DNA from: a bacterium
GTDB taxonomy: Bacteria; Patescibacteriota; Patescibacteriia; Patescibacteriales; VMTK01
DNA: 54,276 nucleotides
Assembly: GCA_030693295.1 (NCBI GenBank)
Contig: JAUYAT010000034.1
Location: forward strand, 1 to 54,276
Reading direction: 5' to 3'
Shown: in pieces, positions 6,608 to 46,565 of the stretch
How the letters are laid out: every line of letters begins with the position of its first letter
Position numbering within the stretch: the first letter of the stretch is position 1
Notes under the pieces: model-generated
What the model saw: only the letters and a program-made list of their open reading frames with translations
What the model was told of the DNA's origin: nothing
The model's database searches: none
Program-made: the position numbers and the translations under genes

Positions 6608-6793
6608 TGTCATTCCCAGCTTGACTGGGAATCCATGAGTTAACGGTAAGAATAAGAAAATAGATAAAAGTGTTAAAAAATATTATAGTACTTTTTAAAC
6701 TTTTTATTGATTATTCGCGTTTTTGCGGCTCACTCCTGGATTCCCGCTTTCGCTCGCCTCGCTGAAGCTTTGGCGAAGCGGGCGGGAATGACA
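6608..6793. repeat. ATTCCC-N8/9-GGGAAT paired palindromic (REP/dRS3-like) element
   Basis: Terminal IR tgtcattccc/gggaatgaca; two internal ATTCCC..GGGAAT hairpins, the right one interrupted by a 30-nt insert. Confidence 0.7.
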
Positions 6794-6819: not shown

Positions 6820-7107
6820 ATGACAAACATACAAATGCAAAATTTACACAAAGAGATAGGCGAAGCGAGAGAAGAAAATATGAATGAGCGAAACAATAAC
6901 AAAAATATTAAAAAAACAAAACGTAGAAAAATTTCGAAATTTAATATACTAATAATAAGCATTGTGCTAATGCAAATTTTTGTTTACATTACTAGTCCGG
7001 TAAAACATCCTTTTGAAGATTATTTTGGAGTTATCTTGGTGGGTTTAATAATTTTAGCTATTGGAAATTTTGTAAAGTTTATTATTAGAAAAATAAAAAA
7101 TAAATAA
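6820..7107 (+). CDS. hypothetical membrane protein (2 TM)
   Basis: ORF with two hydrophobic segments; start may be 6879. Confidence 0.55.
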   Translation: MTNIQMQNLHKEIGEAREENMNERNNNKNIKKTKRRKISKFNILIISIVLMQIFVYITSPVKHPFEDYFGVILVGLIILAIGNFVKFIIRKIKNK

Positions 7108-31085: not shown

Positions 31086-31403
31086 TTATTTTCTTTTGGC
31101 GCGTGATTTTGGCGACTCTAATTTTGCAATCCTTTTTTGCAATTTTACATTTTCCTTCTCAAGCTCGCTTTCTTTATATTTAGTGTTCAGGTAAGAGTCC
31201 GTCTCCCACCAATTGATGCCGATTTGTTGGGCTTTGTCAACGGAAGCAATAAGCAGTCGTATCTTAATCGTCAAAAGCTCAACATCAGCTAATTTAATCT
31301 GAATATCTCCCGCAATGACAATGCCCTTATCCAAAACGCGCTCTAAAATATCGGCTAAGTTTGTCGATTGAATGGAATGGACTATTTGTTGGTTATTGCT
31401 CAT
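31086..31403 (-). CDS. gvpJ: gas vesicle protein GvpJ
   Basis: LADILERVLDKGIVIAGDI...ELLTIKIRLLIASVDKA...GINWW. Confidence 0.9.
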   Translation of the reverse strand: MSNNQQIVHSIQSTNLADILERVLDKGIVIAGDIQIKLADVELLTIKIRLLIASVDKAQQIGINWWETDSYLNTKYKESELEKENVKLQKRIAKLESPKSRAKRK

Positions 31404-31414
31404 AATTTTTATTT

Positions 31415-31496
31415 ACCCCGTTAGAAAATTTATTTTTGATGAATCTTTAGAGAATAATTTTTCAGGAAGTAATGAATGTTGATTTTCTAACGGGGT
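31415..31496. repeat. 82-bp element with ACCCCGTTAGA/TCTAACGGGGT terminal inverted repeats
   Basis: Same termini at 17897-17978, 32059-32140 and 34470-34547. Confidence 0.75.
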
Positions 31497-32078
31497 TTAC
31501 ATTAAATTCCCTAATGGTCCGAGGTCTAAATTTAATTCTTCGTCCTCTAATCCAAATATGGCTTTCATCTCTTCAATTTTTTTATCTAAGGCCTTGAAAG
31601 TCAGGCCGAGTTTTTGAATTTCAACCTCAGAAAGATTGCCTTTTGTGATTCTACGTTTCGCTTCTCTATACATCAAGTCCTTTATCAGCTTCACGAGGGT
31701 TAAGACTAATTGGGCGATTCCTTTTTCGGCTTTTTCCGGATTAGCGGCTTCAATTATTCCGGGTATGTTCCTTTCCGCTCTCTCTATTTCTTGCTCCAAA
31801 CTTCTGATATACTCCTCGTCTTCTTTACTAACCGCTCCACCGAAAGAATCGTCTCCCCTTCGCAAAACTTCTGCTCGACTAATGGAAGTAATGAGAAGTT
31901 TAAGGCCGATAAATATAAGATCTACATCCGCAACTCTAATAACCACCTCACCGTCCAAAACCGCTCCTTTTTCTAAAACTTTATCTAAAGCATCTATTAA
32001 AGTAACCCTTTCCTCTATGGGCGGTCTTTCTGAAGTCGCAATATTTGCTAATGTTTTTACCCCGTTAGAAATTTTCAT
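31497..32078 (-). CDS. gvpK: GvpK with N-terminal GvpA-like domain
   Basis: LIDALDKVLEKG N-domain; KGIAQLVLTLVKL...LNLDLGPLG C-domain. Confidence 0.88.
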   Translation of the reverse strand: MKISNGVKTLANIATSERPPIEERVTLIDALDKVLEKGAVLDGEVVIRVADVDLIFIGLKLLITSISRAEVLRRGDDSFGGAVSKEDEEYIRSLEQEIERAERNIPGIIEAANPEKAEKGIAQLVLTLVKLIKDLMYREAKRRITKGNLSEVEIQKLGLTFKALDKKIEEMKAIFGLEDEELNLDLGPLGNLM

Positions 32079-32163
32079 AATTTTTCTCTTATTACACTCG
32101 CTATAAATCTTATCTGCCGAGTATTGATTTCTAATGGGGTGAATTTTGGGGGTGCTTCATAAA

Positions 32164-32997
32164 TTACACAAAGTTATAAGGAGGCCATGGGCCGCTTGAT
32201 TCAAAAATAAAACCTATTTTTTCATATTCGGCCCGCAACTTTTGCATCTCCTTTTGGAACTTATCAACCTTTTCTTTTTTTACAAGGAATGCCCCGTTAA
32301 AAATCATCGGATCGTTTCTTTGAGTTAATTCTTTTCCGAGAATTCTGTTTTCTTTTAATTCTTCAGCTAACCCCTTGAGCTTTTCAAGAAAAAGAGGGAT
32401 GTAATTATTATTTATAGAATTTTTCGCCTCTCTTTTAACCATTTCATTTATTTCCTCTTCTAAAAAATATTGTCTGCCGGCTGGCAAAGATTTAATTTCT
32501 TCAAGTTTGCTTTGGATCATTGGTGATTTCTTTTTAATTTCATTTTCAAGAAGTTGGGATTTCAAATAGATTTTCACCGATCGTTCCTCTTTTCCCTGCA
32601 AGCCGTCAAGAAGGCCTTTAAACTTTAAGTAATCTTTCTTTAAAGAACCTATTAAGCTCCCTTTATCCTTAAATATCGTCCCAAATTTCATGGGAATAAT
32701 CAGCCCATCAGAGTTATTCATCGCTGTCTCAATTGCCTTTTCATGCATCAGGGCTTTATCTTTTATCCATTCCAGATCCTCTCGCGCCCTTCTTTGAATT
32801 TCTTCTGACCCGAATTCCTTTAAAAAAACCTCGCTCACTACCGCCTCAATATCCTTATAAGGAATGGAGAAAACTTTTTCCCCGCCAATACTTTCACCAG
32901 TGTCTTTATTTGATAGTTTTTTTATTTTTACGGATGGGCTCGCCTCGCTGAAGCTTCGGCGAAGCGGGCAGATCCCATAAAGATAAAGTCCTTTCAT
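32164..32997 (-). CDS. gvpL: GvpL/GvpF family protein
   Basis: LYLYGI, IPMKFGTIF, IFNGAFLV and SGPWPPYNF motifs. Confidence 0.88.
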   Translation of the reverse strand: MKGLYLYGICPLRRSFSEASPSVKIKKLSNKDTGESIGGEKVFSIPYKDIEAVVSEVFLKEFGSEEIQRRAREDLEWIKDKALMHEKAIETAMNNSDGLIIPMKFGTIFKDKGSLIGSLKKDYLKFKGLLDGLQGKEERSVKIYLKSQLLENEIKKKSPMIQSKLEEIKSLPAGRQYFLEEEINEMVKREAKNSINNNYIPLFLEKLKGLAEELKENRILGKELTQRNDPMIFNGAFLVKKEKVDKFQKEMQKLRAEYEKIGFIFESSGPWPPYNFV

Positions 32998-33048
32998 AAT
33001 TTCAGAATAAATTCTTTTTATAATTTCAGATTTTAATGAAAAAAGCTC

Positions 33049-33384
33049 TTACACTTCTGGATTCAGAGCCGTATCAACTCTTTTACGAAGATCAGTTCGT
33101 TTATAACTAATAATCTTCCCGCTCTCGTCAACTCGCACCTCATAAGCGCCCAAAACATCCATCCCGTCAGGAATCGATGCCTTCTCAATTACTTCTATAG
33201 TCGCTATCAACTCATTGCCCTCTTTTTTAAAGCCAATCGCCGACGGAGATTTAAACCCGGTTAAGTCGGCGAGTTCTTTTTTTGCTTTTTCCAGTATGTC
33301 TTTTGTAGCCATATTTTTGATCTTTTCACCCCGTTGATCCGCCAGCTGGCGGATTATTTGGGATTGATTTAGCGTTTTTTTCAT
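33049..33384 (-). CDS. gvpO: gas vesicle protein GvpO (start may be 33312)
   Basis: IEVIEKASIPDGMDVLGAYEVRVD...SYKR. Confidence 0.85.
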   Translation of the reverse strand: MKKTLNQSQIIRQLADQRGEKIKNMATKDILEKAKKELADLTGFKSPSAIGFKKEGNELIATIEVIEKASIPDGMDVLGAYEVRVDESGKIISYKRTDLRKRVDTALNPEV

Positions 33385-33487
33385 ATTTTTAATTTTAACT
33401 CCCTTATTGGACTTTTTCGACCTTTTGATTCCTTTTGTTTTCAATTGAACCATAGATTTAGGATTATTTTTTATATTTTAATATCCA

Positions 33488-33706
33488 TCACGCGCGCCTC
33501 TCTTTTGCTTTCCGTATAGCCTCTAATCTCTTTAGTATCTCCTCCTCTCGTTTGATTAATTCTTCTTCGCTGATTTGATCTGTTTCAAAAAGGGTGCGGA
33601 CATTAAGAAGCTCGTCTTTCAGTTTTGATTCATCAGTAACTTCCCGCTCGGCTATTTCCTGCAGTTTCTCAGCTAGCCAGATTAAACCATCATCAATAAG
33701 AAACAT
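33488..33706 (-). CDS. gvpG: gas vesicle protein GvpG
   Basis: WLAEKLQEIAERE...ISEEELIKREEEILKRL. Confidence 0.85.
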   Translation of the reverse strand: MFLIDDGLIWLAEKLQEIAEREVTDESKLKDELLNVRTLFETDQISEEELIKREEEILKRLEAIRKAKERRA

Positions 33707-33709
33707 AAG

Positions 33710-34504
33710 TTAATTGAGGCTTATTTTTAAACCAACAAAGTTATACAAAGGAAAGGGGCCGGAACAGTTAAGCTTGGTGTTGGGAAAACTTTGAGCAAGT
33801 ATTCCTGCCCTTCGGCTAAATTCATCTTCTCCTCCTTTTTTTATTAAAAACGCGGCATTCAAAATCATATTTTCTCCAAAGAGTTGTTGCTCCTTAAGTT
33901 CTTCAGCTAAATCGCCGATGGCCTTGATTATATTTTGAGCTTCATCTTGCTTTCTTTTCTCTAATAATTTTCCAATAAATTCTCCCACGGCTATTTTCCG
34001 TTGATAGGTTAAGTGTGTTTTTTTTAACCGCTGAAGTTCTGGATTCTTGGCAATTTCTTGAAAAATAAATTGCATATTCGGCCAAAACGCTTTCAACCCC
34101 ACTTCTGTCTTGCCTTTAAATTTCTGGAGAAGTTCCTCAAATTCAGCCCTTCTTTCTTTAAGAATCTTCTTTATTTGATCTTCAGTATTAGCAATGTTGC
34201 TAAAGCTAAAAGGAAGAACATCATAATGCTTCATCACTTCCTCAATTGGTTTCTGGTGTGCAATAATGTGCTCTCGCCATAAAGGATAGTGATCGCATGA
34301 CGTATCGCTCACTATACAGGAAAGGTTTCCTTGATTAACCGCATAAGCGGCATTTCCTTCTAGGCCAACGAGATTTCCGCCCGAGGCGGATCCGCCTTTG
34401 GCGGAAAATCGATCTTTAGGAACTTTGCCTTTGATAATGCAGTGAAGATATTTTCCTGTTATGTTACTCACCCCGTTAGACATTTTTTGTTGTTTTTCTA
34501 ACAT
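33710..34504 (-). CDS. gvpF: GvpF/GvpL family protein
   Basis: YLHCII, AHQ, VLPFSF, ILNAAFLI and GPFPLYNFV motifs; directly before gvpG. Confidence 0.85.
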   Translation of the reverse strand: MLEKQQKMSNGVSNITGKYLHCIIKGKVPKDRFSAKGGSASGGNLVGLEGNAAYAVNQGNLSCIVSDTSCDHYPLWREHIIAHQKPIEEVMKHYDVLPFSFSNIANTEDQIKKILKERRAEFEELLQKFKGKTEVGLKAFWPNMQFIFQEIAKNPELQRLKKTHLTYQRKIAVGEFIGKLLEKRKQDEAQNIIKAIGDLAEELKEQQLFGENMILNAAFLIKKGGEDEFSRRAGILAQSFPNTKLNCSGPFPLYNFVGLKISLN

Positions 34505-34570
34505 AATAACTTCTCGAACTATATGTAATTAAGATGTCTAACGGGGCTCATAATACTTTTTTTCTTTCTT

Positions 34571-34912
34571 TTATTCATTTGTCTGTTCAGCAGCCCAAAT
34601 TTGCTTTAGGGCAACGACCAATCCGGCGGCTGAAACAAAAGCAATGAAACTGTTCAAGGCCGGAGTAATGACGGGCGTCAATTTACCAAACTCTAAGCCG
34701 GCCACTCCCACCACCAGCAAGGTAATTACCGCAACTAAAAAGGGGGTGCTTTCCTTTTCTTTGATGTTCAGGAATCCCACGATAAGACCAAAAACAAAAA
34801 GGAGAACGGCTAAATTCGGTACAGCCACAAATCCAGCCAATATCGCTAAGACAATCCCGCCAAGAAACGCCCAATGACCAATGCGTGTTAAGCCCATATT
34901 TTTTAATTCCAT
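34571..34912 (-). CDS. small 4-TM membrane protein
   Basis: Hydrophobic ORF, GLIVGFLNI..KE motif. Confidence 0.7.
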   Translation of the reverse strand: MELKNMGLTRIGHWAFLGGIVLAILAGFVAVPNLAVLLFVFGLIVGFLNIKEKESTPFLVAVITLLVVGVAGLEFGKLTPVITPALNSFIAFVSAAGLVVALKQIWAAEQTNE

Positions 34913-34954
34913 ATTTTTTAAATTCCTTTCAAAGTTTTTATTTATAGTCGACCT

Positions 34955-35893
34955 TTAATTGGAGAATAATTCTCCGGCTAAATTTTTTAAGTTTTTGATT
35001 CCTCTAATTTCTTCGGGGTGTAAAATAATTTCTGAAATGTTAAAATTTGCAAATTTTTTCTTGATTTCGTTGATGTATCTTTCCTGATTTTTCCTTCTTG
35101 ATTGGCAAAAATCGCATTTATTTTCGGGGAAGATATTGTTAATAATGATGTGGCTTGCCGGGATGCGCGTTTTTTCTAAATCCTTTACTAAATCTTCTGT
35201 TTCCAGAACTCCCATTGCTTCGGCGATGGTAACGACTATGAATTCTGTTTTGGCCGGATCCTGAAGAAGGCTCCTTACTTTTTTAACTGTTTTTTTCATC
35301 TCCAGAAGGAACTCATCGGCTTTTTCAATTTTTTTCTTCCCAGAGAATCGCTCTGTCATATAGTGATATTTCCAGCGCAAGCTGGCTAAAAATTTAATCC
35401 AGTTATCCAGAAGTTCGGGAAGAGCTAATAGCCGCAAAGTATGCCCCGTAGGCGCGGTATCAACTAAGTATAAGTCGTATTCTTTGCTATCCATAAAATC
35501 GGTTATTTTTTTCAGCCCCATAACCTCGTCTAATCCCGGGATATCAAGCTCAAACATTTCTCCCGCTTCTTGATCGGATAAATATGTGCCCTGATTTAAA
35601 ATATCTAAAATATCCTCGCCGTATTCTTTTTTAAATTCTTCAAGAACTTTCTTGGCATCAATTTCCATCGCCCACAGATTGGCAACGCCAGTAATTTTTA
35701 CGGGCTCATTGGACAATTTTTGTTCCAAACTATCTGCCAATGACGGCGCCGGATCAGTGGTAAAAATTAAGGTTTTGCGAGTCTTGGCAAAATGAACCGC
35801 TAACGCGCTCGCAATTGTTGTCTTGCCCACGCCGCCTTTTCCTCCGATTAAGATAAACTGCAAATTTTTATGCGTCAGATCGCTTAATGACAT
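34955..35893 (-). CDS. ArsA/Get3-family ATPase
   Basis: GGKGGVGKTT, TDPAPSL, DTAPTGHT and CxxC motifs. Confidence 0.9.
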   Translation of the reverse strand: MSLSDLTHKNLQFILIGGKGGVGKTTIASALAVHFAKTRKTLIFTTDPAPSLADSLEQKLSNEPVKITGVANLWAMEIDAKKVLEEFKKEYGEDILDILNQGTYLSDQEAGEMFELDIPGLDEVMGLKKITDFMDSKEYDLYLVDTAPTGHTLRLLALPELLDNWIKFLASLRWKYHYMTERFSGKKKIEKADEFLLEMKKTVKKVRSLLQDPAKTEFIVVTIAEAMGVLETEDLVKDLEKTRIPASHIIINNIFPENKCDFCQSRRKNQERYINEIKKKFANFNISEIILHPEEIRGIKNLKNLAGELFSN

Positions 35894-35911
35894 AAACGTT
35901 ATTATTCTTTA

Positions 35912-37021
35912 TTATTCTTTTTGCTGTTTCTTTGATTCATCCACTATGGCCGCGATTAAAGCGCCTTTAGTAACGCTGTGCAACGGTTGCGAGGCGAGCC
36001 GTATTTCTCCTAATTCAACAGGCATGGGGAATCTCTGCAGGGCTTCCTGAAACCGTTTGAGAAACCCTGTTGGCTTGGCAGTGCCTCCGGAAAGTATTAT
36101 TGTCAAAGGCCTTTCCAGATGTATAGCTGATTTCTCAAGCTCGGTTTTGAGATGTCCAACTACATAATCAAGCAAGATATCATAATAGATGGATAGCGCC
36201 TGTTCCATTCTTGAAAGATTTTCTCTTTTATCTAAATCCAAACAGGACTCTTTCCAACCGGTGACAATACTTACTGGCTCGCCCACGGCTCTGGCCGCCT
36301 GTTTATCTATCCAGTCTCCTCCGCGAGCAACACTGAAGGATAGAACAGGAATTGATAGGTTAGCCAAACAGACATTCACCATTCCGCCGCCGAAAGAAAA
36401 AGCCAGCCCGGTAAAGTTTTCTTCAGCCAGTTCAGAAAATACCACTGCCAAACCTTCATTGATCGGCTTCGGGGCGTAGCCAAGACTTGAGAGAAAACCG
36501 TCAATAATGCGCTGATGATAAAGAACGTCAAAATCAGCATCAATCGGCTGGGCCGGAACTGAATAATAAACTGTTTCACCCGCCTGATGATGAGAACCGA
36601 CAGCGCTGGCAATCAGCAGCTTAATAATGGGAAGAGCGTCTTTTTCTTTGGGACTAATTACCCCCTGCTCTAACGGCCGCCTGACATTGCGCTGAAACAA
36701 ATTTGCGAAGCGCAGCGCCTCATTACCAACAACATAAAATTGGTCTCCATTTCGGATATACTTCACCTCGTCTCTGGCAAATACTTCTTTAATGTAATCA
36801 CTGGCTGGCAGGTCAAAAAAGGCATCTCGTTCTATTCTAAACACGACCTCATTGCCGATTTTTTCAGCAGCATAGATAAAGGCGGTGCCAACATCTAATC
36901 CCTTTCCGATCTGCAATGTTTGTGCCGCTTGAATTTTCTTGGCTTGTTTGGGAACAAGTATTTTGGCGCGAGATTTCATTCTGGTTTGGTGTTTTGATTT
37001 TGCTTTTGATTTTTTATTCAT
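35912..37021 (-). CDS. actin-like ATPase
   Basis: GLDVGT (phosphate 1), INEGLA, SFGGGMVN (phosphate 2), LSGGT (adenosine). Confidence 0.75.
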   Translation of the reverse strand: MNKKSKAKSKHQTRMKSRAKILVPKQAKKIQAAQTLQIGKGLDVGTAFIYAAEKIGNEVVFRIERDAFFDLPASDYIKEVFARDEVKYIRNGDQFYVVGNEALRFANLFQRNVRRPLEQGVISPKEKDALPIIKLLIASAVGSHHQAGETVYYSVPAQPIDADFDVLYHQRIIDGFLSSLGYAPKPINEGLAVVFSELAEENFTGLAFSFGGGMVNVCLANLSIPVLSFSVARGGDWIDKQAARAVGEPVSIVTGWKESCLDLDKRENLSRMEQALSIYYDILLDYVVGHLKTELEKSAIHLERPLTIILSGGTAKPTGFLKRFQEALQRFPMPVELGEIRLASQPLHSVTKGALIAAIVDESKKQQKE

Positions 37022-37054
37022 ATTTTGTTATACGAATTATTTAATCTGTAATTT

Positions 37055-37438
37055 TCAACTTTTTGCGGTTGTCAGTCGTTTAAGGCTTTTTTGTATCGAG
37101 CGAGCGTCTGCCACTTCAGTGGTTGGGCCCTTGCCTAAATTATGCTCAGTGAAACGGGGCTCTCCGGCCATAAATTCTCTACCTGCCCCGTGGCATCCCG
37201 AAGGGATTGCTTCGGGGTTGATAAAATGAATTTTATGCTCCAATAACGACCTTCCACTGGCGGTTAAAATGAATACATTATTGGCGATCTTTTTAATTAA
37301 TTTCTGGTTTAGTAATTCCCTGGAAACCAAAGAGGCATAATCAGAACTCAAGCCCGTCTCTTTGCTAATTATCCGCATAGAGCAACGGCCTCCTAATTGA
37401 TAGATAATATTTAATATTTCCAATTCTCTTGAAGTCAT
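37055..37438 (-). CDS. winged-helix protein
   Basis: ELEILNIIYQLGG...ISKETGLSSDYA...LTASGR; paralogue of 42368-42670. Confidence 0.65.
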   Translation of the reverse strand: MTSRELEILNIIYQLGGRCSMRIISKETGLSSDYASLVSRELLNQKLIKKIANNVFILTASGRSLLEHKIHFINPEAIPSGCHGAGREFMAGEPRFTEHNLGKGPTTEVADARSIQKSLKRLTTAKS

Positions 37439-37758
37439 ACTGATTGAGATTTGAGCGCATCGCTCATTTCCTTATCTAATTCTTTTAATTTATCTTTCAC
37501 CTTGCTAAGCTCGTTTCTTCTATTTTCTAATTGCTTTTTCTTTTCAATGAGATTCAACCAAATCTTTTCCATCTTGACTATTTCTTCATCAACCGCCGCT
37601 GTTTCCCGCTCTATGGAAGCCAATTTTTGAACAAATTCTTCGGCAAATTTATTACTTGCCCCGTTAGAAAAATTTTCTCTAACTTTATTAACCTGCACCA
37701 CCTGATTTCTGGCGGCCTTGAGCGTTTCAATGGTTTTCGGATCAAATTGTGGATTCAT
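37435..37758 (-). CDS. coiled-coil hypothetical protein
   Basis: ORF overlapping its neighbour, heptad-rich. Confidence 0.6.
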   Translation of the reverse strand: MNPQFDPKTIETLKAARNQVVQVNKVRENFSNGASNKFAEEFVQKLASIERETAAVDEEIVKMEKIWLNLIEKKKQLENRRNELSKVKDKLKELDKEMSDALKSQSV

Positions 37759-37763
37759 ATTGA

Positions 37764-38966
37764 TTACTTTTCTTTAACAATGATTGAATTTTCTACATCT
37801 TCTTTCTTAAAAGAACAAAATTGTTCTTTCTCTATCGCAAGAGCCGAAAAATAATGCTGGCAATAAACAGTTAAAACCTTGTTGGCAGCCACTATATTTT
37901 TCATTTTTCTGGCCGCTTCCTCTATGACCACCTGGTCATTTTTGTATTCATGTTTATCCGGATGATGCTCTGCGGCCAACTTATGGTAAGCGTCTCTTAT
38001 CTCTGGCAAGGCCGCGGATTCTCCGAGCCTCAAAGTTTTTCTGGCGTTATCAACTAAATCAAAATTTCCTACGCTGAGATTAATAACCGTGAAGCTGTAG
38101 GGCGCCATCGGCCCGATATATTTAAATTTCAGCTCATTTTTGTATTTTTCCGCCAGCTTATTTAATTGGAATTCTAACAGCGATTCTTCTCCTTTGCCTA
38201 TTAAAAATGAATAGTTCATAAGCATTTCTTTGTTTACCGCGCGGCGAGTTTGCTCTGCTTCGGGGTTTGCTCCCCCCTTATTGGCATAGAGAAGCTTGCT
38301 CGCCTCGCTGAAGCTCTGGCGAAGCGGGCTGGCGTTAAAATCTGGGAAAGAGGATGCGAGATACTTTAAAATATCTGCTGTATATTCTTTTCGGTATGCC
38401 TCAATAGCTTCAAATATGCGCTTGCCTAATTTTATTTTAGATGCCAACCCCAAAATTCCGCCTTTTGACTCTGCTTCCTTTTTCAATTTTTGAATCGCGA
38501 CATTTTCCCGGACTATCTTCTCAAGCATATTCTTTTCGTTCCAAAATATTTGAACAACAAACTCTGCTTTTCCGGCAATTCTTTCCAGAGCAATCTTAAA
38601 TTGTAGGTATGCCTTGGTTAAAATATTACTAATTTCCTCAATATCTTCCGCAATCATTCCAAACCTCATGGGAATAACATCGTGCTGTTTCATCAGGTTA
38701 ACATTCACCCGTTCATGTATTGCAACTAAATGGGTAAGCTCCTTTTTATCAAGCTTATCAAAATTAATAAAATAAGTGTTGCTGACCGCAACTGCTATCT
38801 CTCTGTAAGGGATGAAAATTATCTCGCGATTATTAATGCCAAACATCGCTTCTGATAAACGAAAATTATCAGAGGCCTGCCCCGTACCGTGCTTGCTCTG
38901 GTGCGGGGATGGCGTCTCTTTTGGATTCTTGATTATTGAATATATGTATTTTCTTTCTTCACTCAT
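37764..38966 (-). CDS. GvpL/GvpF family protein fused to a J domain
   Basis: YIYSII, IPMRFG and GPMAPYSF followed by IRDAYHKLAAEHHPD. Confidence 0.85.
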   Translation of the reverse strand: MSEERKYIYSIIKNPKETPSPHQSKHGTGQASDNFRLSEAMFGINNREIIFIPYREIAVAVSNTYFINFDKLDKKELTHLVAIHERVNVNLMKQHDVIPMRFGMIAEDIEEISNILTKAYLQFKIALERIAGKAEFVVQIFWNEKNMLEKIVRENVAIQKLKKEAESKGGILGLASKIKLGKRIFEAIEAYRKEYTADILKYLASSFPDFNASPLRQSFSEASKLLYANKGGANPEAEQTRRAVNKEMLMNYSFLIGKGEESLLEFQLNKLAEKYKNELKFKYIGPMAPYSFTVINLSVGNFDLVDNARKTLRLGESAALPEIRDAYHKLAAEHHPDKHEYKNDQVVIEEAARKMKNIVAANKVLTVYCQHYFSALAIEKEQFCSFKKEDVENSIIVKEK

Positions 38967-41230
38967 GCCAGGGGTTTATTTTTATTTATCTTGTTAGAAA
39001 TTTCATTTCCAACGGGATTTATTGCTTCTTCAAAATGCTTCGCGGTTATTTTAAAATTATTATCTGGTTGAACGAAATTCTCTCTCACCGCGGACATGGC
39101 GGCCTTTTTGCAAATCAGCTCTATGTCTGCGCCCGTCAGGCCTTCTGTTAGTTTGGCAAATTTCTTTAAGCTAACAGCGCGATCTAACGGCTTATCTTTC
39201 GTGTGAATACTGAATATGGCGCATCGGCACTCTTCGCTTGGCTTGGGGACTTCAAGCAGGAAATCAAATCTTCCTGCGCGAAGCAAAGCCGGATCAACCA
39301 TGTCTAATTTATTTGTCGCTCCTAAAACTACTACGGCTTTTAATTCCTCAATGCCGTCTAACTCCGCCAGAAACTGGCTGACTACTCTTTCCGTAACATG
39401 CGAGTCCGCGCCGCTTCCGCGTTTCGCCACTAAACTGTCTATCTCATCAAAAAAAACTATGCAAGGGGAAGCCAGCTTGGCCTTTTTAAACACTTCCCGG
39501 ATTCCCTTTTCCGATTCGCCGATATATTTTGAAAAAAGCTCCGGTCCTTTAATAGAAATGAAATTTACCCCCAGTTCAGTGGCGACGGCCTTGGCCAAAA
39601 GCGTTTTCCCGCATCCGGGCGGCCCATAGAGCATTATTCCTTTAGACGGCTTGAGTTTTACATAACCCAGCGCCTCGCTGTATTTTAACGGCCATTCAAT
39701 CACTTCCTTAAGCGTTTGTTTAATACACTCAAGCCCCCCTACATCTTCCCATTTGACGCTGGGAATCTCTGAAAAAACTTCGCGCAGAGCCGAGGGCTCC
39801 ACCTCTTTCAGGGCTTCTCTAAAATGTTCGCCGGTAACCTCTATTTTACGGAGCTTCTCATACGGAATGTACCACTCTTTTTCTCCGCCAGAGGCGGATC
39901 CGCCTTGGGCGGAAAACTCAATCTCTGGCATGATTTCACGCAACGCCGACATTGCCGCTTCTCGGCAGAGTGCCTCAAGATCAGCTCCGACAAATCCGTG
40001 AGTGATTTCAGCCAGCTTGTCCAAGTCAACCCCATCTGCTAAGGGCATGCCCCTTGTATGTATTTCCAGTATTGCTTTTCTGGCGTTTCTGTCTGGAATG
40101 CCAATCACAATTTCCCGATCAAATCGTCCCGGCCTGCGCAGGGCCGGATCAAGCGTATTGGGAATATTAGTTGCTCCAATCACTATTAACTGGCCGCGCG
40201 ATTCCAAACCGTCCATCAAGGCCAAAAGTTGCGCCACCACTCGTCTTTCCACCTGCTTCTCGCCGCCCATTTCTTCGCGCTTGGGCGCAATCGCGTCAAT
40301 TTCATCAATAAAAAGTATGGCCGGGGCGTTGGCTTTTGCTTCTTCAAATATTTCTCGCAGCCGGCCCTCTGACTCGCCATAAAACTTTCCCATTATTTCC
40401 GGTCCCGAAATGTGGGTAAAATAGGCATCGGTCTCATTCGCCACTGCCCGGGCAATTAATGTCTTGCCGCATCCCGGCGATCCGTGTAAAAGCACTCCCT
40501 TGGGCGGATCGATTCCTAATCTCTCAAAAAGCTCGGGGTGTTTTAGCGGAAGTTCAATCATTTCTCTAATTCTCCGTATTTCTTTTCCTAATCCGCCAAT
40601 GTCTTCATAGGTTATACCAATCCCTTGTTTTTCTTTGGCCATGCCCTTTAGCTTTATAAAAGTAAAGGGTTTTATCAAAACTACTTTGGCTGGACTCGCC
40701 TCGCTCGCCTCGCTGAAGCTTTGGCGAAGCGGGCTGAAGCTTTGGCGAAGCGGGTCGGTATCTTCTACTAAAAAATCCTGGGCCCTTGTTCCAAAAAGCG
40801 TGGCTCTTATTTTACTGCCTTTTATTACCGGGGTTCCGTCAAGTATCTCGGCCAAATATTGGGCATCCTCTTTTTTGAATGAAGCGCCGGTATTTAAGGG
40901 GGATAGGACGAGTACTCGCGCTTCTTCGTAAGAAACCTTCTGAATTTCCACCTTTTCATCCAAACCAATTTTCAAATTCTCTCTGGCAATGCCATCTATT
41001 TGAATAATGCCTTTTCCTCGATCCTCTGGATAAGCGGGCATCATCCTTGCTACAGCTTCTCTTCCCTTTTTCCCCTCTGATTTTTGCGGTGTCAATCTGA
41101 TAATATCTCCTGTATCGGCCTGAATTTTTGAAAAATACTCGGGGTCAATTCTGGCAATGGCTCTGCCCACATCTTTGCTTTGGGCTTCGGTTACTTTAAG
41201 GATTAGTGATCCGTTATTCGGTGACTTCAT
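38963..41230 (-). CDS. CDC48/p97-family AAA ATPase
   Basis: N-domain DVGRAIARID; two AAA modules (GSPGCGKT, GPPGCGKT) and RPGRFDRE. Confidence 0.93.
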   Translation of the reverse strand: MKSPNNGSLILKVTEAQSKDVGRAIARIDPEYFSKIQADTGDIIRLTPQKSEGKKGREAVARMMPAYPEDRGKGIIQIDGIARENLKIGLDEKVEIQKVSYEEARVLVLSPLNTGASFKKEDAQYLAEILDGTPVIKGSKIRATLFGTRAQDFLVEDTDPLRQSFSPLRQSFSEASEASPAKVVLIKPFTFIKLKGMAKEKQGIGITYEDIGGLGKEIRRIREMIELPLKHPELFERLGIDPPKGVLLHGSPGCGKTLIARAVANETDAYFTHISGPEIMGKFYGESEGRLREIFEEAKANAPAILFIDEIDAIAPKREEMGGEKQVERRVVAQLLALMDGLESRGQLIVIGATNIPNTLDPALRRPGRFDREIVIGIPDRNARKAILEIHTRGMPLADGVDLDKLAEITHGFVGADLEALCREAAMSALREIMPEIEFSAQGGSASGGEKEWYIPYEKLRKIEVTGEHFREALKEVEPSALREVFSEIPSVKWEDVGGLECIKQTLKEVIEWPLKYSEALGYVKLKPSKGIMLYGPPGCGKTLLAKAVATELGVNFISIKGPELFSKYIGESEKGIREVFKKAKLASPCIVFFDEIDSLVAKRGSGADSHVTERVVSQFLAELDGIEELKAVVVLGATNKLDMVDPALLRAGRFDFLLEVPKPSEECRCAIFSIHTKDKPLDRAVSLKKFAKLTEGLTGADIELICKKAAMSAVRENFVQPDNNFKITAKHFEEAINPVGNEISNKINKNKPLA

Positions 41231-41916
41231 TTTGTTTTGGTTAATTTCAATTCCAATATCCCATTTTTGAAATTCATCTCCCGAGATTCAAAATCAACTT
41301 TGGCCGGCAGCAAAATCTCTTTGGCGTATTTTCGGTCATTGCTCCCCGCTTCGCCCGCGAAGCGAGGCGAGTCCGCCTCAAATAAAAGAATATCCCCGCC
41401 TGCCATCGGCTTTGCCTCAGGCGAATGGCGGGCAGACTTTTTCAAATCGACTTTAATGCTTTTTTCGTCAATACCCGGGAGTTCGGCGATTATCAAAATA
41501 TGATCTTTCTCGTCAAACACATCAACGATTGGTTCTCTCGTCTCTGATACCTTCGGACCTTCTTTAGTTTTTTTAATATTCCCGAATGGTTCAACTTTTG
41601 TTCTTTGTCCCAGACCAGTCCGAACAGTAAAACCATATACTCCATGAATATCTTGGCGTCCCCCAAATCCTTTTCCGCCAAAGGCGGATCCGCCTCGGGC
41701 GGAAATCCGGCCGCTTCTTTTCAGTTCACCGCCGACTTCCTCGGCCCGTTCCGCTAAATCAATAAATTTCCCCAATCCTTTAAGCAAACCGCCGACAAAA
41801 GGTATATCGTCAAGCGATATTTCATCCTTGCCCTCCGACTTGTCCTCCGTAGCTTTAGCGTAGGAGGAAGCCTTGGCGAAGGAGGGTTTTCCCTTTTTTT
41901 GTTCTTCTTTTTTCAT
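41227..41916 (-). CDS. Hsp20/alpha-crystallin (GvpH-like) protein
   Basis: REPIVDVFDE, IAELPGI and FKNGILEL motifs. Confidence 0.85.
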   Translation of the reverse strand: MKKEEQKKGKPSFAKASSYAKATEDKSEGKDEISLDDIPFVGGLLKGLGKFIDLAERAEEVGGELKRSGRISARGGSAFGGKGFGGRQDIHGVYGFTVRTGLGQRTKVEPFGNIKKTKEGPKVSETREPIVDVFDEKDHILIIAELPGIDEKSIKVDLKKSARHSPEAKPMAGGDILLFEADSPRFAGEAGSNDRKYAKEILLPAKVDFESREMNFKNGILELKLTKTK

Positions 41917-42368
41917 AAAATTTTGAAAGTTCCCAAAAAATCCTTGAAGAAGAATTTTCTTCCTTTCTTTATCTCTGCTTTTGCTTTTCTTATTTTCGGC
42001 GCGGCTGGCTTTATGCCCCTTGTCTTGCTCCTTGATTTCTTAATGGGCTGGCTCTTTTTTCTTCTTGTCTTTGGAACCGAAGATTCGACTATCAATGGAT
42101 GTCTCTTTTCTTCAACAAACCCCTTGCCCTGGCACAGCAAACAATAGAGATTGGCGCCTGCTTTCTTGCCTCTGCCCCCGCATTCCTTACATATATTATA
42201 CGGCTGGTTTACAGTAACACGGCCACTGCCTTTGCAGACAATGCAAGACAGACGCTCCGCGCCCGGCTGTACTCCCTTGCCTTGGCAAAAAGCGCATGGG
42301 AATTTTTTAGTTTTTTCCGCCAAGGGCGGATCCGCCTCTGGCGGAGAATATTTTTTTTTCATTTTCAT
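41913..42368 (-). CDS. DnaJ-type zinc-finger protein
   Basis: Four CxxCxGxG repeats and a basic tail. Confidence 0.75.
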   Translation of the reverse strand: MKMKKKYSPPEADPPLAEKTKKFPCAFCQGKGVQPGAERLSCIVCKGSGRVTVNQPYNICKECGGRGKKAGANLYCLLCQGKGFVEEKRHPLIVESSVPKTRRKKSQPIKKSRSKTRGIKPAAPKIRKAKAEIKKGRKFFFKDFLGTFKIL

Positions 42369-42670
42369 TAATACTCTAAAATAAATTTCCCATCTCGGTC
42401 TTTCCCAAGTCCAAACTTTGGCATTTTCTTAGAAACCACAATCTTACTGGGTTTATTGACCTTTCTTTTTGCCGCCTCAAGTTTGCCTTTTCCGCGAAAC
42501 ACGGCCAGTTTTGAATGCAGAAAGTCAATATAATCATGCCGGCCGAGATTATTGCAAATAAGCCTGGCATAATCGGTGCTGATCCTCGCCTCCCTCGCAA
42601 TAGTGTCAATGGATGCCTCTCCGCCCCAATCCCAAAGAATTTCTAATACTTTAAGTTCTGTTCCTGACAT
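42368..42670 (-). CDS. winged-helix protein
   Basis: ELKVLEILWDWGG...IAREARISTDYA. Confidence 0.65.
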   Translation of the reverse strand: MSGTELKVLEILWDWGGEASIDTIAREARISTDYARLICNNLGRHDYIDFLHSKLAVFRGKGKLEAAKRKVNKPSKIVVSKKMPKFGLGKDRDGKFILEY

Positions 42671-42671
42671 G

Positions 42672-42983
42672 TTAATAGTCTAAAACGGTATGGCTGCCCG
42701 ATTTTGAATAGGTTTCTCTAATTTTACTCAATCCCTTGCTCCCAGCAGTGGCAATTTTAAGAAGTTTAGCCATGCCCGTATTAATTACGGTTAAATTTTT
42801 ATCGATCTGCTTCCCTTTTTTTTGCAATCTTATTTTTTCTTTCTCAAGCCGGTCTCTCTTATTTTGACGCATATACAGGTCTAAAAAAGCCGACTTTGAT
42901 GAGTGAGGAATAGACCTTAGCCCGGTTGAACCCGCGCTTTTTAAGTCGTGGATCCCCGAGAGATTAGCGTTTATTTTTTCCAT
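42672..42983 (-). CDS. GvpV-like coiled-coil protein
   Basis: AFLDLYM...RDRLEKE; directly after gvpN. Confidence 0.5.
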   Translation of the reverse strand: MEKINANLSGIHDLKSAGSTGLRSIPHSSKSAFLDLYMRQNKRDRLEKEKIRLQKKGKQIDKNLTVINTGMAKLLKIATAGSKGLSKIRETYSKSGSHTVLDY

Positions 42984-43001
42984 AGATTTGTGTGTAATTA
43001 A

Positions 43002-43931
43002 TTAACAAAGTTTGGTGATTAATTCTCCTACTATTTTTCTCACCTTATTATGGTGATCTTGCGAGCCCAATCGCGTTGTTTCCGATGCCAATATATCCTG
43101 GGCTAACTGGCGGAACAAGCGGCTGGAAGCCAACACTGCGCCTCCGTTAGTCTTGAGGGACTTTGCCAGCATTATTGAGCCGCGAACAGTTGGCGCGAAT
43201 TCATATTCCCCGGAATCGCGAAGCGCTCGGACGATATTGACAATTTTCTCGGTATCTTTTCGATCTAGACCGGATTTGGCTTGAGTGATGGCAATTTCCG
43301 TATTCTTGTCAAAGTGCCTTAAATCCATAGTTACCATTCTATCGCGCAACGCGTCTTGAGCTTTATTTGTCCCCGCGTATTCTTCAGGATTTGAGGTGAA
43401 AATAGCCACAAACTGCGGATGAGCCTTAAGATAATAAGATTCCCGCCCTTGTCTGGCCATCGGCAAATCCATCACCCCTTCTTGCAAGATGGAAAGCAAG
43501 GTGTTGTTTGCTTCCGGCCGGGATCGAGTGAACTCGTCATAAATAAGGGTAAAGCCGTTTTTTACCGCGATAGTCAGACGATTATCCATCCACTGTTTTG
43601 AGAAGTTCTCTTCTTTCTTAAGGACGCTCTGAATAAAATTGTCTCTTAAATATTTGTAACGGTAGCCATGCTCTCCGCCAATAAGATCAGAGGTAGAATA
43701 TTCCTCATCGCCATGAATCAACACTGCCGGACGGCCAATCTTTTGCGCCAAGTGCAAAGCCAAGGTGGTTTTTCCTGTTCCTGAAGCGCCTCTTAAATGC
43801 ACGGGAAAACCCGCCTTAATATAATTCAACGCCCGCTTGCTAATATCCTTGATATACGAAGTCTCCACAAAGCCAGCCACTGGCCGTGGCTCAATAATTG
43901 CTTGTTCTTCATCTGATGATAAATAAGACAT
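43002..43931 (-). CDS. gvpN: gas vesicle AAA ATPase GvpN
   Basis: GFPVHLRGASGTGKTT, YDEFTRSRPEANN, FTSNPEEYAG and QDALRDR motifs. Confidence 0.95.
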   Translation of the reverse strand: MSYLSSDEEQAIIEPRPVAGFVETSYIKDISKRALNYIKAGFPVHLRGASGTGKTTLALHLAQKIGRPAVLIHGDEEYSTSDLIGGEHGYRYKYLRDNFIQSVLKKEENFSKQWMDNRLTIAVKNGFTLIYDEFTRSRPEANNTLLSILQEGVMDLPMARQGRESYYLKAHPQFVAIFTSNPEEYAGTNKAQDALRDRMVTMDLRHFDKNTEIAITQAKSGLDRKDTEKIVNIVRALRDSGEYEFAPTVRGSIMLAKSLKTNGGAVLASSRLFRQLAQDILASETTRLGSQDHHNKVRKIVGELITKLC

Positions 43932-44052
43932 ATTGGTAATTCAATTAAAATTAATGTTCAAGTCGGAATCTTGCCAGAATCTTGCGCGATTCCGAATATT
44001 TCGACCCGCCTGCCATCGCTATGCTCAGGCATTGCGGGCAGGCCTTTAGAAT

Positions 44053-44715
44053 TTATTTAGCTTTATGCTTTTTTGCTTTTTTTGCTGCTTTTTTTGGTTC
44101 CTCGGCTTCTTCTCCCGCCGCAATCGCTCTCTCCTGCTTCCTTAATACCCCCCAGTTTGCGCGCGCTTCTTTTCGCTCTTCTGCGTAATCGCCTAACAAA
44201 TCCGCTACATGCTTTTGGATAACAGGTATTTGCGACTCTATATCTTTCATCATAGTCTTGAAATCAACCATACGGGTTTGTTCGCTTTTAGCCAGCAAAT
44301 CCTTCAAGTCCTTTGCTATTTCTTTCATTTCCTTGTCAAAGCGACTAAGCAACTCTTTCACATCAGCCGCTCTTTCTTTGCTTTCTCCGCTAAATCTTAC
44401 AATAAGTTTCCTGGAATCTTCTAATACATCAGCTACTCTTGCTTGAATGTCCTTTATCATTTTACTGAAATCTGCCATTCTGTCCTTTTCGCTCTTATCC
44501 AAAAAATTCTTCAGTTCCTGCGCCACTTCCTTTAATTCTTTGTCAAATCGCGAAAGAAGCTCGCGCGTGTCCGCTTTATTATCTATTAATTCCTTATCAA
44601 GTCGCGAAAGAAGCTCGCGCGTGTCCGCTTTATTATCTCTAACGAATTGCAAGCGATCTTTTGTGGAAGTTTTAATATCGCTTACTAAACTTTTCATTTC
44701 TTGTGCGTATGACAT
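44053..44715 (-). CDS. GvpC-like helical repeat protein
   Basis: All-helical amphipathic repeats (ELLSRFDKE x3); lies between gvpA and gvpN. Confidence 0.6.
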   Translation of the reverse strand: MSYAQEMKSLVSDIKTSTKDRLQFVRDNKADTRELLSRLDKELIDNKADTRELLSRFDKELKEVAQELKNFLDKSEKDRMADFSKMIKDIQARVADVLEDSRKLIVRFSGESKERAADVKELLSRFDKEMKEIAKDLKDLLAKSEQTRMVDFKTMMKDIESQIPVIQKHVADLLGDYAEERKEARANWGVLRKQERAIAAGEEAEEPKKAAKKAKKHKAK

Positions 44716-44818
44716 ATTTTTTTGTTAAATTGATTAATGTTGATTAGTTAATGCTAATTGTTTTGTCGACCTTTAGTTATTTCTTTAGTTATTTATAAAA
44801 ATTTATTTGTTTGAATTG

Positions 44819-45091
44819 TTAAACCTTCAAAAACCCCGCCTCTCCTAAATACTTCTCATACTCCGGAAAGAAATCCAACGCCACTTTCTTTAATTCTAAA
44901 TGTTCAAGATAGTATTTTCTGATCTTCGTAAGTTGTTCCGCTCGCTTTCTCGCCGCAGTCCTCCGCCAGCTGGCGGACTGCGCGACGGAGCGGAAATATT
45001 GTTCTTTTTCGCGTTTCTCTTTTTTTAATTTCCTTTCTTCATCCCATATTTCTCTCATTGTTCTTATTGTTTTTGTTTTGATAATAGGCAT
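44819..45091 (-). CDS. hypothetical basic protein
   Basis: Co-oriented ORF in the operon. Confidence 0.45.
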   Translation of the reverse strand: MPIIKTKTIRTMREIWDEERKLKKEKREKEQYFRSVAQSASWRRTAARKRAEQLTKIRKYYLEHLELKKVALDFFPEYEKYLGEAGFLKV

Positions 45092-45216
45092 TTGAATGAT
45101 TTTATTTAGGCTCTGCTGATTTTCACCGATTATTCACCTCTTGAGAGGGGCTAAGGATGGATTATTGAAAAATTAACAGATTGAATGCGTTAATTCGTTA
45201 ATAAATAATTCCTTTT

Positions 45217-45564
45217 CTATATCGCTCCCAATCCATAACAACTCGCGCAAGGAAGATCGCTTCCCGGTTCTCTTCCGTCGCCTTTGCACTTAGCGCATCT
45301 TTTCTCCCCCCTGATCTTCGTTACCATGCCTTTCCCGCCGCATACGGCGCAAGGCATTCGGTGGTTAAAGAAAATGCCGCTTCCTTTGCAATAGGGACAA
45401 ATTTCCACCGGCTCCACCACTTGAACCGCGCCCCTGCCATTGCAAACTTGGCAGTTGGAAAGTTTTGACGGAACCTCAAACGGATCCTTGCCCTTTCCTT
45501 TGCAAAAAGCGCAAGTGATTGTTCGGTAGTTGCAAGCAGATTTTTTGGTTGTCTTTTTTGCCAT
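45217..45564 (-). CDS. DnaJ-type zinc-finger protein
   Basis: Six CxxCxGxG repeats. Confidence 0.78.
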   Translation of the reverse strand: MAKKTTKKSACNYRTITCAFCKGKGKDPFEVPSKLSNCQVCNGRGAVQVVEPVEICPYCKGSGIFFNHRMPCAVCGGKGMVTKIRGEKRCAKCKGDGREPGSDLPCASCYGLGAI

Positions 45565-45574
45565 AAATTTTAAT

Positions 45575-46147
45575 TTATAAATCCTTTTTTTTATCAAGCA
45601 GCGGCGATATCTTCTTCCACTCTTCCGCCGCCGCTTCCCTTTCCTTTTTAAATGCTTCCAGCATCTTATAGACTTCGCTCTGCATAGTTGCCAGCTCGGC
45701 CCTAACTTGCTCTCCGGTATTTGCTTCTCTTGATGCCTGATCCTGCCGTATGCGGACTAAAGTTTTTTTGAAATCTGCCAAGCGAAGTTCCTCGCCTCTT
45801 TTAAGCAGCCCTTTTAAATGTTCTACCACTCGGGTCTCTTCCTCTCTGAAATCAGCCAGCATTTTTTTCACATTTTCTTCTCTTTTATGCTGGGTCAATA
45901 AAATATCCCGCATCATCGCGCTAAAATCTTTTTTGCGAAGCGACTCGGATTTTGCTAAAACCTCCCGAAGATTATCACTCATCTCCTCCCTATTTTTCCT
46001 AAATCCGTTCAGCGCCTTATGAGTGTCTTCCACAATCTCTCCGACTACTCTCACCCGCGCGTCATACGAGACAATAATGTCCTTTGCTAAATCTCTTAGG
46101 TCTCGCTTCTCGGTCTCGCCTGATTCTTTTTTCATTAATTCTTTCAT
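45575..46147 (-). CDS. helical protein, second GvpC-like candidate
   Basis: LAKSESLRKKDFSAMMRDI resembles LAKSEQTRMVDFKTMMKDI of 44053-44715. Confidence 0.6.
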   Translation of the reverse strand: MKELMKKESGETEKRDLRDLAKDIIVSYDARVRVVGEIVEDTHKALNGFRKNREEMSDNLREVLAKSESLRKKDFSAMMRDILLTQHKREENVKKMLADFREEETRVVEHLKGLLKRGEELRLADFKKTLVRIRQDQASREANTGEQVRAELATMQSEVYKMLEAFKKEREAAAEEWKKISPLLDKKKDL

Positions 46148-46358
46148 AAATATCTCTCAAAAGTTCAAAATGCAAAAATTAAAATGTAAAATGGCAAATT
46201 AAAATTATAAAATTATTCTGATTAGATTCATTTTTATATTTTAATTTTTGCATTTATATTGTCTAAGGCACGCTCTCGATTTTACCCATATGGGTTGTGG
46301 GAGGACTTTATAGTGCTTCTACCAATCTAAAGGGCGCCCTATCCAATATGCTCTAATA

Positions 46359-46565
46359 TTAAGCGGCGCTGGCAGTCAAACCGACTGCTTCAGCGTACTT
46401 CAACCAGGTCTCAACTGAAGCAATCACTACTCGGGCTTCAATCGCCAGAAGCTCAATTCCCACTAACGAAATTCTTACCCAAGCGTCAATCACCACGCCC
46501 TTGTCAAGAATGCGGTCAATCACTTCCACCAAGCTGGAGCTGGACATTGATTTTTCTACGGCCAT
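46359..46565 (-). CDS. gvpA: major gas vesicle shell protein GvpA
   Basis: [55 protein letters not shown]. Confidence 0.97.

Follow-up and report, generated by a model that had tools for sequence, protein, structure and literature searches.

How DNA units shorter than 40 bases move has been an open question since the cyanobacterial repeats were described. The small dispersed repeats SDR1-8 of the Nostocaceae, reportedly set out by Elhai et al. in 2008, are said to measure 21-27 nt, to nest in their own copies and to land in heptamer repeats; movement through an RNA intermediate has reportedly been proposed for them, and we know of no enzyme that acts on them. Here we describe a 30-nt element found in the 54,276-nt contig JAUYAT010000034.1 (assembly GCA_030693295.1) of a bacterium of the Patescibacteriota. 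The whole of this stretch is referred to as the window, and the genome to which it belongs (G000; 1.06 Mb, about 90% complete, its relatives having 0.7-1.4 Mb) as the source genome. The element is almost certainly a real mobile insert, it is recently active, and it is likely to be among the smallest mobile elements known.

Several described systems resemble it. SDR5 inserts precisely at a fixed bond of the palindrome HIP1 (PMC4390886, PMC5861425). Rickettsia palindromic elements, of about 105-150 bp, are translated in-frame inserts in unrelated housekeeping proteins (PMC10969869, PMC3184786). REP/NTS repeats of the CGTC type, described together with Ssn nucleases, have a terminal CGTC or TGTC tag, an 8-9 bp stem and a 4-5 nt loop (PMC3733652, PMC11893778). 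HUH enzymes cut and join a single strand on hairpin DNA, and one of them, TnpA-REP, requires conserved mismatches (PMC8266576).

A short element with fixed ends that inserts into itself

The element has fixed ends: two unequal arms of 9 bases, CTCGCCTCG and CGAAGCGGG, stand on either side of a core that varies and usually has 12 bases. The source genome carries 46 innermost copies with exact arms, as against 0 for a reversed control, and un-nesting brings the genome-wide count to 58 copies in three layers (46, 11 and 1). Twelve of these hold another copy, nests run up to three deep, and all 12 self-nests use one and the same bond. In 8 of the 12 the inner core differs from the outer one, which argues against slippage and for successive insertion events, as an earlier annotation made from the letters of this contig (the sequence-only reading) had proposed. 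One could still suppose that copies arise without a dedicated enzyme, when a polymerase switches template or slips or when hairpins undergo gene conversion with one another: six head-to-tail copies in the recG gene of G018 and a 9-base arm duplication in G001 look like slippage, and the favoured target is similar to the four bases at either end of the element. Yet the ends are exact at targets unlike them (recG, cdc48), and identical 30-mers occur in cultured Chelativorans isolates; we consider this explanation very improbable.

Allowing up to three mismatches, the window yields four matches (the intergenic copy, the two gvpL/F copies and the inner cdc48 copy; Table 1), while 100 shuffles yield none. 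The four places named by the sequence-only reading are thus all genuine, but its list lacked a 27-nt variant with the same arms, at which an orthologue of the host open reading frame (ORF) shows a 9-residue gap. The double nest in cdc48 is as described there and adds 20 residues to the protein (PLRQSFS-PLRQSFSEAS-EAS). Four of the five junctions are G|C, again as noted earlier, and the fifth, that of the outer Cdc48 copy, is A|T; GC appears on both sides because a G|C target adjoins the element's own first C and last G. The host gene labels (gvpL/F, gvpL/F-DnaJ, Cdc48) agree with Pfam. The in-frame 30-mer is real, but the unit folds weakly, as an imperfect hairpin (z -0.60 and -1.60 on the two strands), so that "palindromic" is a loose label. 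Rfam gave no match to the element, and no plasmid match was found.

Table 1. Copies of the element and their hosts in the window
Feature	Position	Strand	Context
30-nt element	6753-6782	+	intergenic, within CGTC-type REP/NTS hairpin
Host CGTC-REP/NTS hairpin	6737-6792	+	landing site, no part of the element
30-nt element, 1 mismatch	32939-32968	+	antisense, in frame in gvpL/F 32164-32997(-), reads PLRRSFSEAS
30-nt element, 1 mismatch	38299-38328	+	antisense, in frame in gvpL/F-DnaJ 37764-38966(-), reads PLRQSFSEAS
Outer element	40695-40754	+	split, 40695-40703 and 40734-40754, in cdc48 38963-41230(-), A|T junction
Inner element	40704-40733	+	between bases 9 and 10 of the outer copy
27-nt variant, same arms	41345-41371	-	sense, in frame (SPRFAGEAG) in ORF 41227-41916(-)
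Cdc48/VAT-type double AAA+ ATPase gene (host)	38963-41230	-	gas-vesicle cluster; insert at residues about 161-180

Filled and empty sites

In G001, a genome of the same genus, the orthologous hairpin is empty at two sites that are filled in the source genome. Given that the flanks are 96-100% identical, the fills occurred in place: 30 nt at C61:9877 and, at C31:3372, a 60-nt nest whose two cores differ. In G001, 34 hairpins are empty, and its single copy of the element lies outside such hairpins; the comparison took in 20 stretches covering most of the 34, and the remaining hairpins examined are unfilled in the source genome, absent from it or without a clear orthologue there. Whole NTS hairpin pairs of G001 (L392, L393, L394, L403) are missing at the orthologous sites of the source genome, so the host repeat itself has recently been gained or lost.

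Had the peptides been ancestral, orthologues would carry homologous residues at these positions; instead, the Cdc48 orthologues of G002 and G004 are shorter by exactly 60 nt at the nest, and the insert is absent from all 65 homologues compared. Contigs of runs X3 and X6, from another study, are short of exactly 30 nt at 38298 and pass over 40694-40755. At 32939 no clean empty allele was found, relatives differing there by longer blocks. The contigs of the probable source run break at repeats, as would be expected if the element were an assembly artefact, but X2, a second sample of the source study, covers 38299-38328 without a difference, and 22 of 61 related genomes (control 0) contain the unit, as do RefSeq isolates. 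Its companion explanation, a micro-intron removed from the RNA, conflicts with the avoidance of stops and of frame disruption reported below, which implies purifying selection on the translated product, not splicing. To artefact or micro-intron we give practically no credence.

The recG comparison covers 32 rows, namely 30 loci and two obtained earlier, with 8 further matched genomes left out. A single bond carries the element in 5 of these rows, each time with another core; in the sisters of G000 and G046 it is empty. Well-supported branches of a quick tree require at least three changes, which could also be one gain and two precise losses; we infer repeated hits at this bond in preference to repeated loss. 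The recG of G018 (L219, C38:1053-1232) holds its six head-to-tail copies in two core types, adding 60 residues in frame.

Copies within genes

Reading frames were called on the empty site with a gene and codon model of our own, an open insert not being required. All 44 distinct coding copies are a multiple of three in length and free of stops, whereas 105 of 119 non-coding copies are a multiple of three (p 0.012). Likewise, in the frame where common cores give a stop, such cores make up 0 of 11, as compared with 61 of 157 elsewhere (p 0.008). That all 44 keep the frame and are open suggests that coding copies are likely translated, and together with the empty orthologous sites this bears out the earlier view of a minimal mobile unit which, by being a multiple of three in length, is able to settle in proteins. 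Across genomes 25 coding copies are antisense and 19 sense, and all six frames occur; a general antisense bias, to which the 15 of 15 antisense coding 30-mers of the source genome had pointed, was discarded accordingly. Host genes in the source genome include what we take, from their sequence, to be gatB, hisS, mnmA, tgt, miaB and recG. In a hisS-like gene (L328, C53, about 6900-7060) several elements, belonging to more than one family, are stacked in frame over about 160 nt.

The insert was also mapped onto a predicted structure. In a model of the Cdc48 N-domain (mean pLDDT 89) it appears as a loop, a coil with pLDDT of about 65 directly after a beta-strand; a single-sequence prediction reached pLDDT 38. 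Coding copies would seem to survive only in tolerant loops.

The target rule

For the analysis of targets we pooled the source genome, 78 loci of relatives and 121 loci of a genome collection (266 copies). Loci with a GC content of at least 0.56 (41 of 266 rows) were dropped, leaving 225 copies and 177 distinct targets, or 168 after removal of 2 with short flanks and 7 in tandem. Pooled copies were found through their exact arms, and conservation of the ends outside the source genome is partly built in. Among the 225 copies, 176 are 30 nt and 27 are 27 nt long, the range being 24-33; the 17 of 28, 29, 31 or 32 bases were never called coding.

At the 168 distinct sites the base 3' of the junction is C or T in 95% and the base 5' is G or A in 84%, with G|C in 88. 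The tally within the source genome is G|C 50, A|T 3, G|T 3, A|C 1 and A|G 1. Folding is stronger at the targets than at purine|pyrimidine control sites nearby (mean z -1.11 versus -0.05, p 5e-11); 22 lie in another hairpin family, 10 in NTS, 8 in the element itself and 128 elsewhere. In the source genome 32 CGTC-type REP/NTS hairpins are filled at one bond and 43 are empty, and copies also lie within heptamer runs at C27:4704 and C47:4986. Insertion is blunt and leaves no target duplication. The duplication that the sequence-only reading hoped to define by orthologue alignment did not appear: junctions are blunt at recG and cdc48, and even at A|T targets, where none is present, the join falls between the two bases.

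Spread across genomes

Exact-arm copies occur in 21 of 60 relatives. The genome collection adds at least 121 loci, including named records of Patescibacteria, Nitrospirota, Omnitrophota and Bacteroidota, and two cultured Chelativorans strains carry identical 30-mers, with 2 of 3 copies inside a CGTC-type repeat. Viral contigs gave 21 matches, many of them probably due to chance, and many high-GC matches in both of these scans look like chance too. A metagenome scan for the nested pattern returned 21 loci; in 20 the outer unit is not exact-armed, and these outer units are for the most part a sister or decayed element, some being probable chance matches. No description of the element in Patescibacteria was found in the literature searched, most subscription journals and the supplementary intragenic-repeat lists of PMC3733652 being outside its scope.

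How the element may move

This gene-less 30-base unit has entered hairpin-rich DNA by blunt insertion between a purine and a pyrimidine (G|C in most cases), with its own fixed bond also serving as a target. We propose that it moves as single-stranded DNA through a hairpin-recognising cut-and-join enzyme encoded elsewhere and acting in trans, most likely of the HUH/RAYT type. Taken as a whole this explanation is, on balance, probable, and its core, single-strand cut-and-join by an enzyme or insertion begun at a nick, is quite likely; HUH/RAYT as the enzyme is a tentative choice. The exact ends, and a join between two bases even at mismatched targets, point to an enzyme that cuts and rejoins one strand, and the A|T joins fit an exchange of one strand; the chemistry may thus well be single-stranded. 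Neither arm mismatch was found repaired in any copy of the source genome (47 versus 0), which resembles the conserved mismatches that TnpA-REP needs (PMC8266576). Because HUH enzymes join on hairpin DNA and SsnA is reported as a cutter, HUH/RAYT ranks first and GIY-YIG second.

The source genome has seven small GIY-YIG genes and a further GIY-YIG match within a longer protein, a single reverse transcriptase and, at C8:30316-30867, a single RAYT-like gene. Matches to Y1/HUH are found in 19 of 21 element-positive and 22 of 39 negative relatives (p 0.008), though kin are not independent, here or in the two comparisons below. G024 has three RAYT-like genes by NF047646, the negative set having been scored by the earlier Y1 search alone. 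An apparent link to one Y1 subfamily was dropped, no element lying near those genes.

Several observations weigh against the proposal. No enzyme is tied to the element, and the linked HUH or GIY-YIG enzyme for which the sequence-only reading suggested looking did not emerge: none of the 213 copies is within 600 nt of a Y1 gene, nor do any of the 64 Y1 genes have one within 400 nt. G043 (98% complete, 2 copies) gave no Y1/RAYT match. The RAYT genes inspected carry other repeats, and the element lacks the GTAG tag. Since GIY-YIG counts are also higher in positive genomes, the Y1 association may simply reflect a general repeat load. IS200-type elements favour the lagging-strand template (PMC6006769); by GC skew, copies of the element show no link to a replication strand (44 versus 41). 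The element's own hairpin is weak, and no excised circle was seen in the data, which are contigs.

The principal competitor is a small GIY-YIG single-strand nuclease (Ssn/Slx1-like) that nicks the hairpin; repair, or an ability of the nuclease to join DNA that has gone unrecognised, would then copy or join the element in at the nick. Small GIY-YIG genes are present in each of the 21 positive relatives but also in 34 of 39 negative ones (p 0.15), with mean counts of 5.4 and 3.3. The commonest landing site in the source genome is the repeat that flanks an Ssn-like gene, and at C18 both flanking repeats are filled; moreover, two copies within tRNA-like remnants sit upstream of GIY-YIG genes, at distances of 14 and 40 nt. 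On the other hand, such a gene is close to only 4 of 213 copies, about 1.6 being expected (p 0.08), and among 401 genomes no arm-gene-arm copy contains one. SsnA reportedly cuts the variable flank upstream of the hairpin and not the stem, and no joining is reported in the available part of its description (PMC11893778). We regard this route as unlikely, though well ahead of reverse transcription, of copying without a dedicated enzyme and of an artefact or micro-intron.

Reverse transcription of an RNA intermediate could also move a short unit. The source genome does have its one reverse transcriptase, and among 76 distinct cores the element's positions 16 and 21 vary together as a pair, with 7 G-T and 3 A-C cases. 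The enzyme is, however, equally frequent in positive and negative relatives (10 of 21 versus 17 of 39, p 0.79) and was not found in G024, which is 100% complete and has 6 copies. The lack of a target duplication, the presence of both orientations in genes and the want of an Rfam match also speak against it, and we hold it improbable. Beside a reverse transcriptase at C56:1602-3599 of the source genome lies a small helical accessory-type gene, an arrangement that we take to resemble a diversity-generating retroelement.

An autonomous parent was sought as a gene between arms 230-420 nt apart. Matches in 401 genomes were at control level (3 versus 2), and none of the 3 has a GIY-YIG or Y1 gene. 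Separately, the inverted ends that close a small GIY-YIG gene at C45:10076-10276 are akin to a short repeat matched 21 times in the source genome. A recurrent layout, in which a partial tRNA copy with a hairpin insert is followed by a small GIY-YIG gene and then by the intact tRNA, is seen at C3:639-890 and C45:36476-36727 of the source genome and at L072, L171, L176 and L216; it suggests tRNA-targeting GIY-YIG elements.

The gas-vesicle cluster and a second insert family

Positions 31086-46565 of the window hold a chaperone-rich gas-vesicle cluster encoding GvpA/J, K, three L/F, O, G, an ArsA-like ATPase, volactin and Cdc48. It is syntenic in two genomes of the same family; no Cdc48 orthologue was found in G001. 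A second family of 30-nt inserts, forming a double hairpin, lies at 34376-34405, 39884-39913, 41674-41703 and 42316-42345, in frame in four genes of the cluster and read as SAKGGSASGG or PPEADPPLAE. The source genome has 10 exact-pattern copies of this family, 8 of them coding. The double-hairpin insert is absent from the Cdc48 orthologues of G002 and G004, one of which has a copy in its ArsA-like gene. The ORF at 41227-41916 (minus strand) is multiply inserted, with an apparent nest at about 41820-41895, a double hairpin, a block at about 41395-41440 and the 27-nt variant, and encodes 229 aa, the orthologue having 188.

Comparison with known systems

The kind to which the element belongs is already known but unexplained; the evidence presented here is unusually clean, though it comes without an identified enzyme. 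The question can be tested in vitro, since this case supplies precise donor ends, a rule for targets, sites occupied in one and vacant in another of two nearly identical genomes, and a few candidate enzymes within a single small genome. If it is true that one small enzyme scarlessly inserts a 30-base oligonucleotide at hairpins, this would be new chemistry with a possible use. The element is also a source of in-frame peptide insertions in the proteins of streamlined bacteria, and bears on annotation and phylogeny. More boldly, it might be the type member of an undescribed cross-phylum class of parentless, single-stranded insertion units of 24-33 bases, moved by an unrecognised cut-and-join activity (for example that of single-domain GIY-YIG nucleases known only as cutters) and placing peptides of ten residues time and again in the same loops of essential proteins; we find this rather doubtful.

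By length or tag the element falls outside the small dispersed repeats, the Rickettsia elements and the CGTC and GTAG types of REP, and it is not a MITE (a transposable element of miniature size with inverted repeats). Classical MITEs differ in that the element has no target-site duplication, as its blunt junctions at recG and cdc48 attest, and no parent in the 401 genomes. A derivative of an IS110/bridge recombinase would be another possibility, but an IS110 transposase was not found in any of the 5 copy-rich genomes searched, among them the source genome (about 90% complete).

With the GTAG REP of the TnpA-REP/RAYT system (PMC8266576) the element shares an imperfect palindrome, two conserved mismatches and junctions defined by a dinucleotide, and by analogy single-strand cut-and-join chemistry would fit it. 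It differs in having neither the tag nor an adjacent RAYT, in its frequent coding copies, and in junctions that are G|C or purine|pyrimidine rather than CT. The relation to CGTC REP/NTS is that of guest and host. The hairpin around the intergenic copy is such a repeat, which elsewhere in the genome flanks the Ssn-like gene, and at C18 the element sits within NTS repeats; the CGTC tag and the 8-9 bp stem with 4-5 nt loop are present in the host hairpin and absent from the 30-mer. Nor does the element flank an Ssn gene of its own: a copy lies within 400 nt of 1 of 27 GIY-YIG genes, inside another repeat.

The sequence-only reading took Rickettsia palindromic elements as the analogue. The in-frame, probably translated habit in unrelated genes is indeed shared, as the 44 coding copies attest, but those elements are much longer, whereas this one has 30 nt, nests in itself and lands mostly in other repeats. 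The small dispersed repeats of cyanobacteria are the better analogue: a very small dispersed unit with no known enzyme, a fixed palindrome bond (32 of 32 filled NTS hairpins and 12 of 12 self-nests in the source genome use one bond), nests up to three deep, copies in heptamer runs, and 22 of 168 targets in another hairpin family. Compared by description, the element is mostly 30 nt (24-33) as against the reported 21-27, has broad purine|pyrimidine hairpin targets, and extends beyond the Nostocaceae to records of Patescibacteria, Nitrospirota, Omnitrophota, Bacteroidota and Chelativorans. The closest known kind is thus the small dispersed repeats of cyanobacteria rather than the Rickettsia elements.

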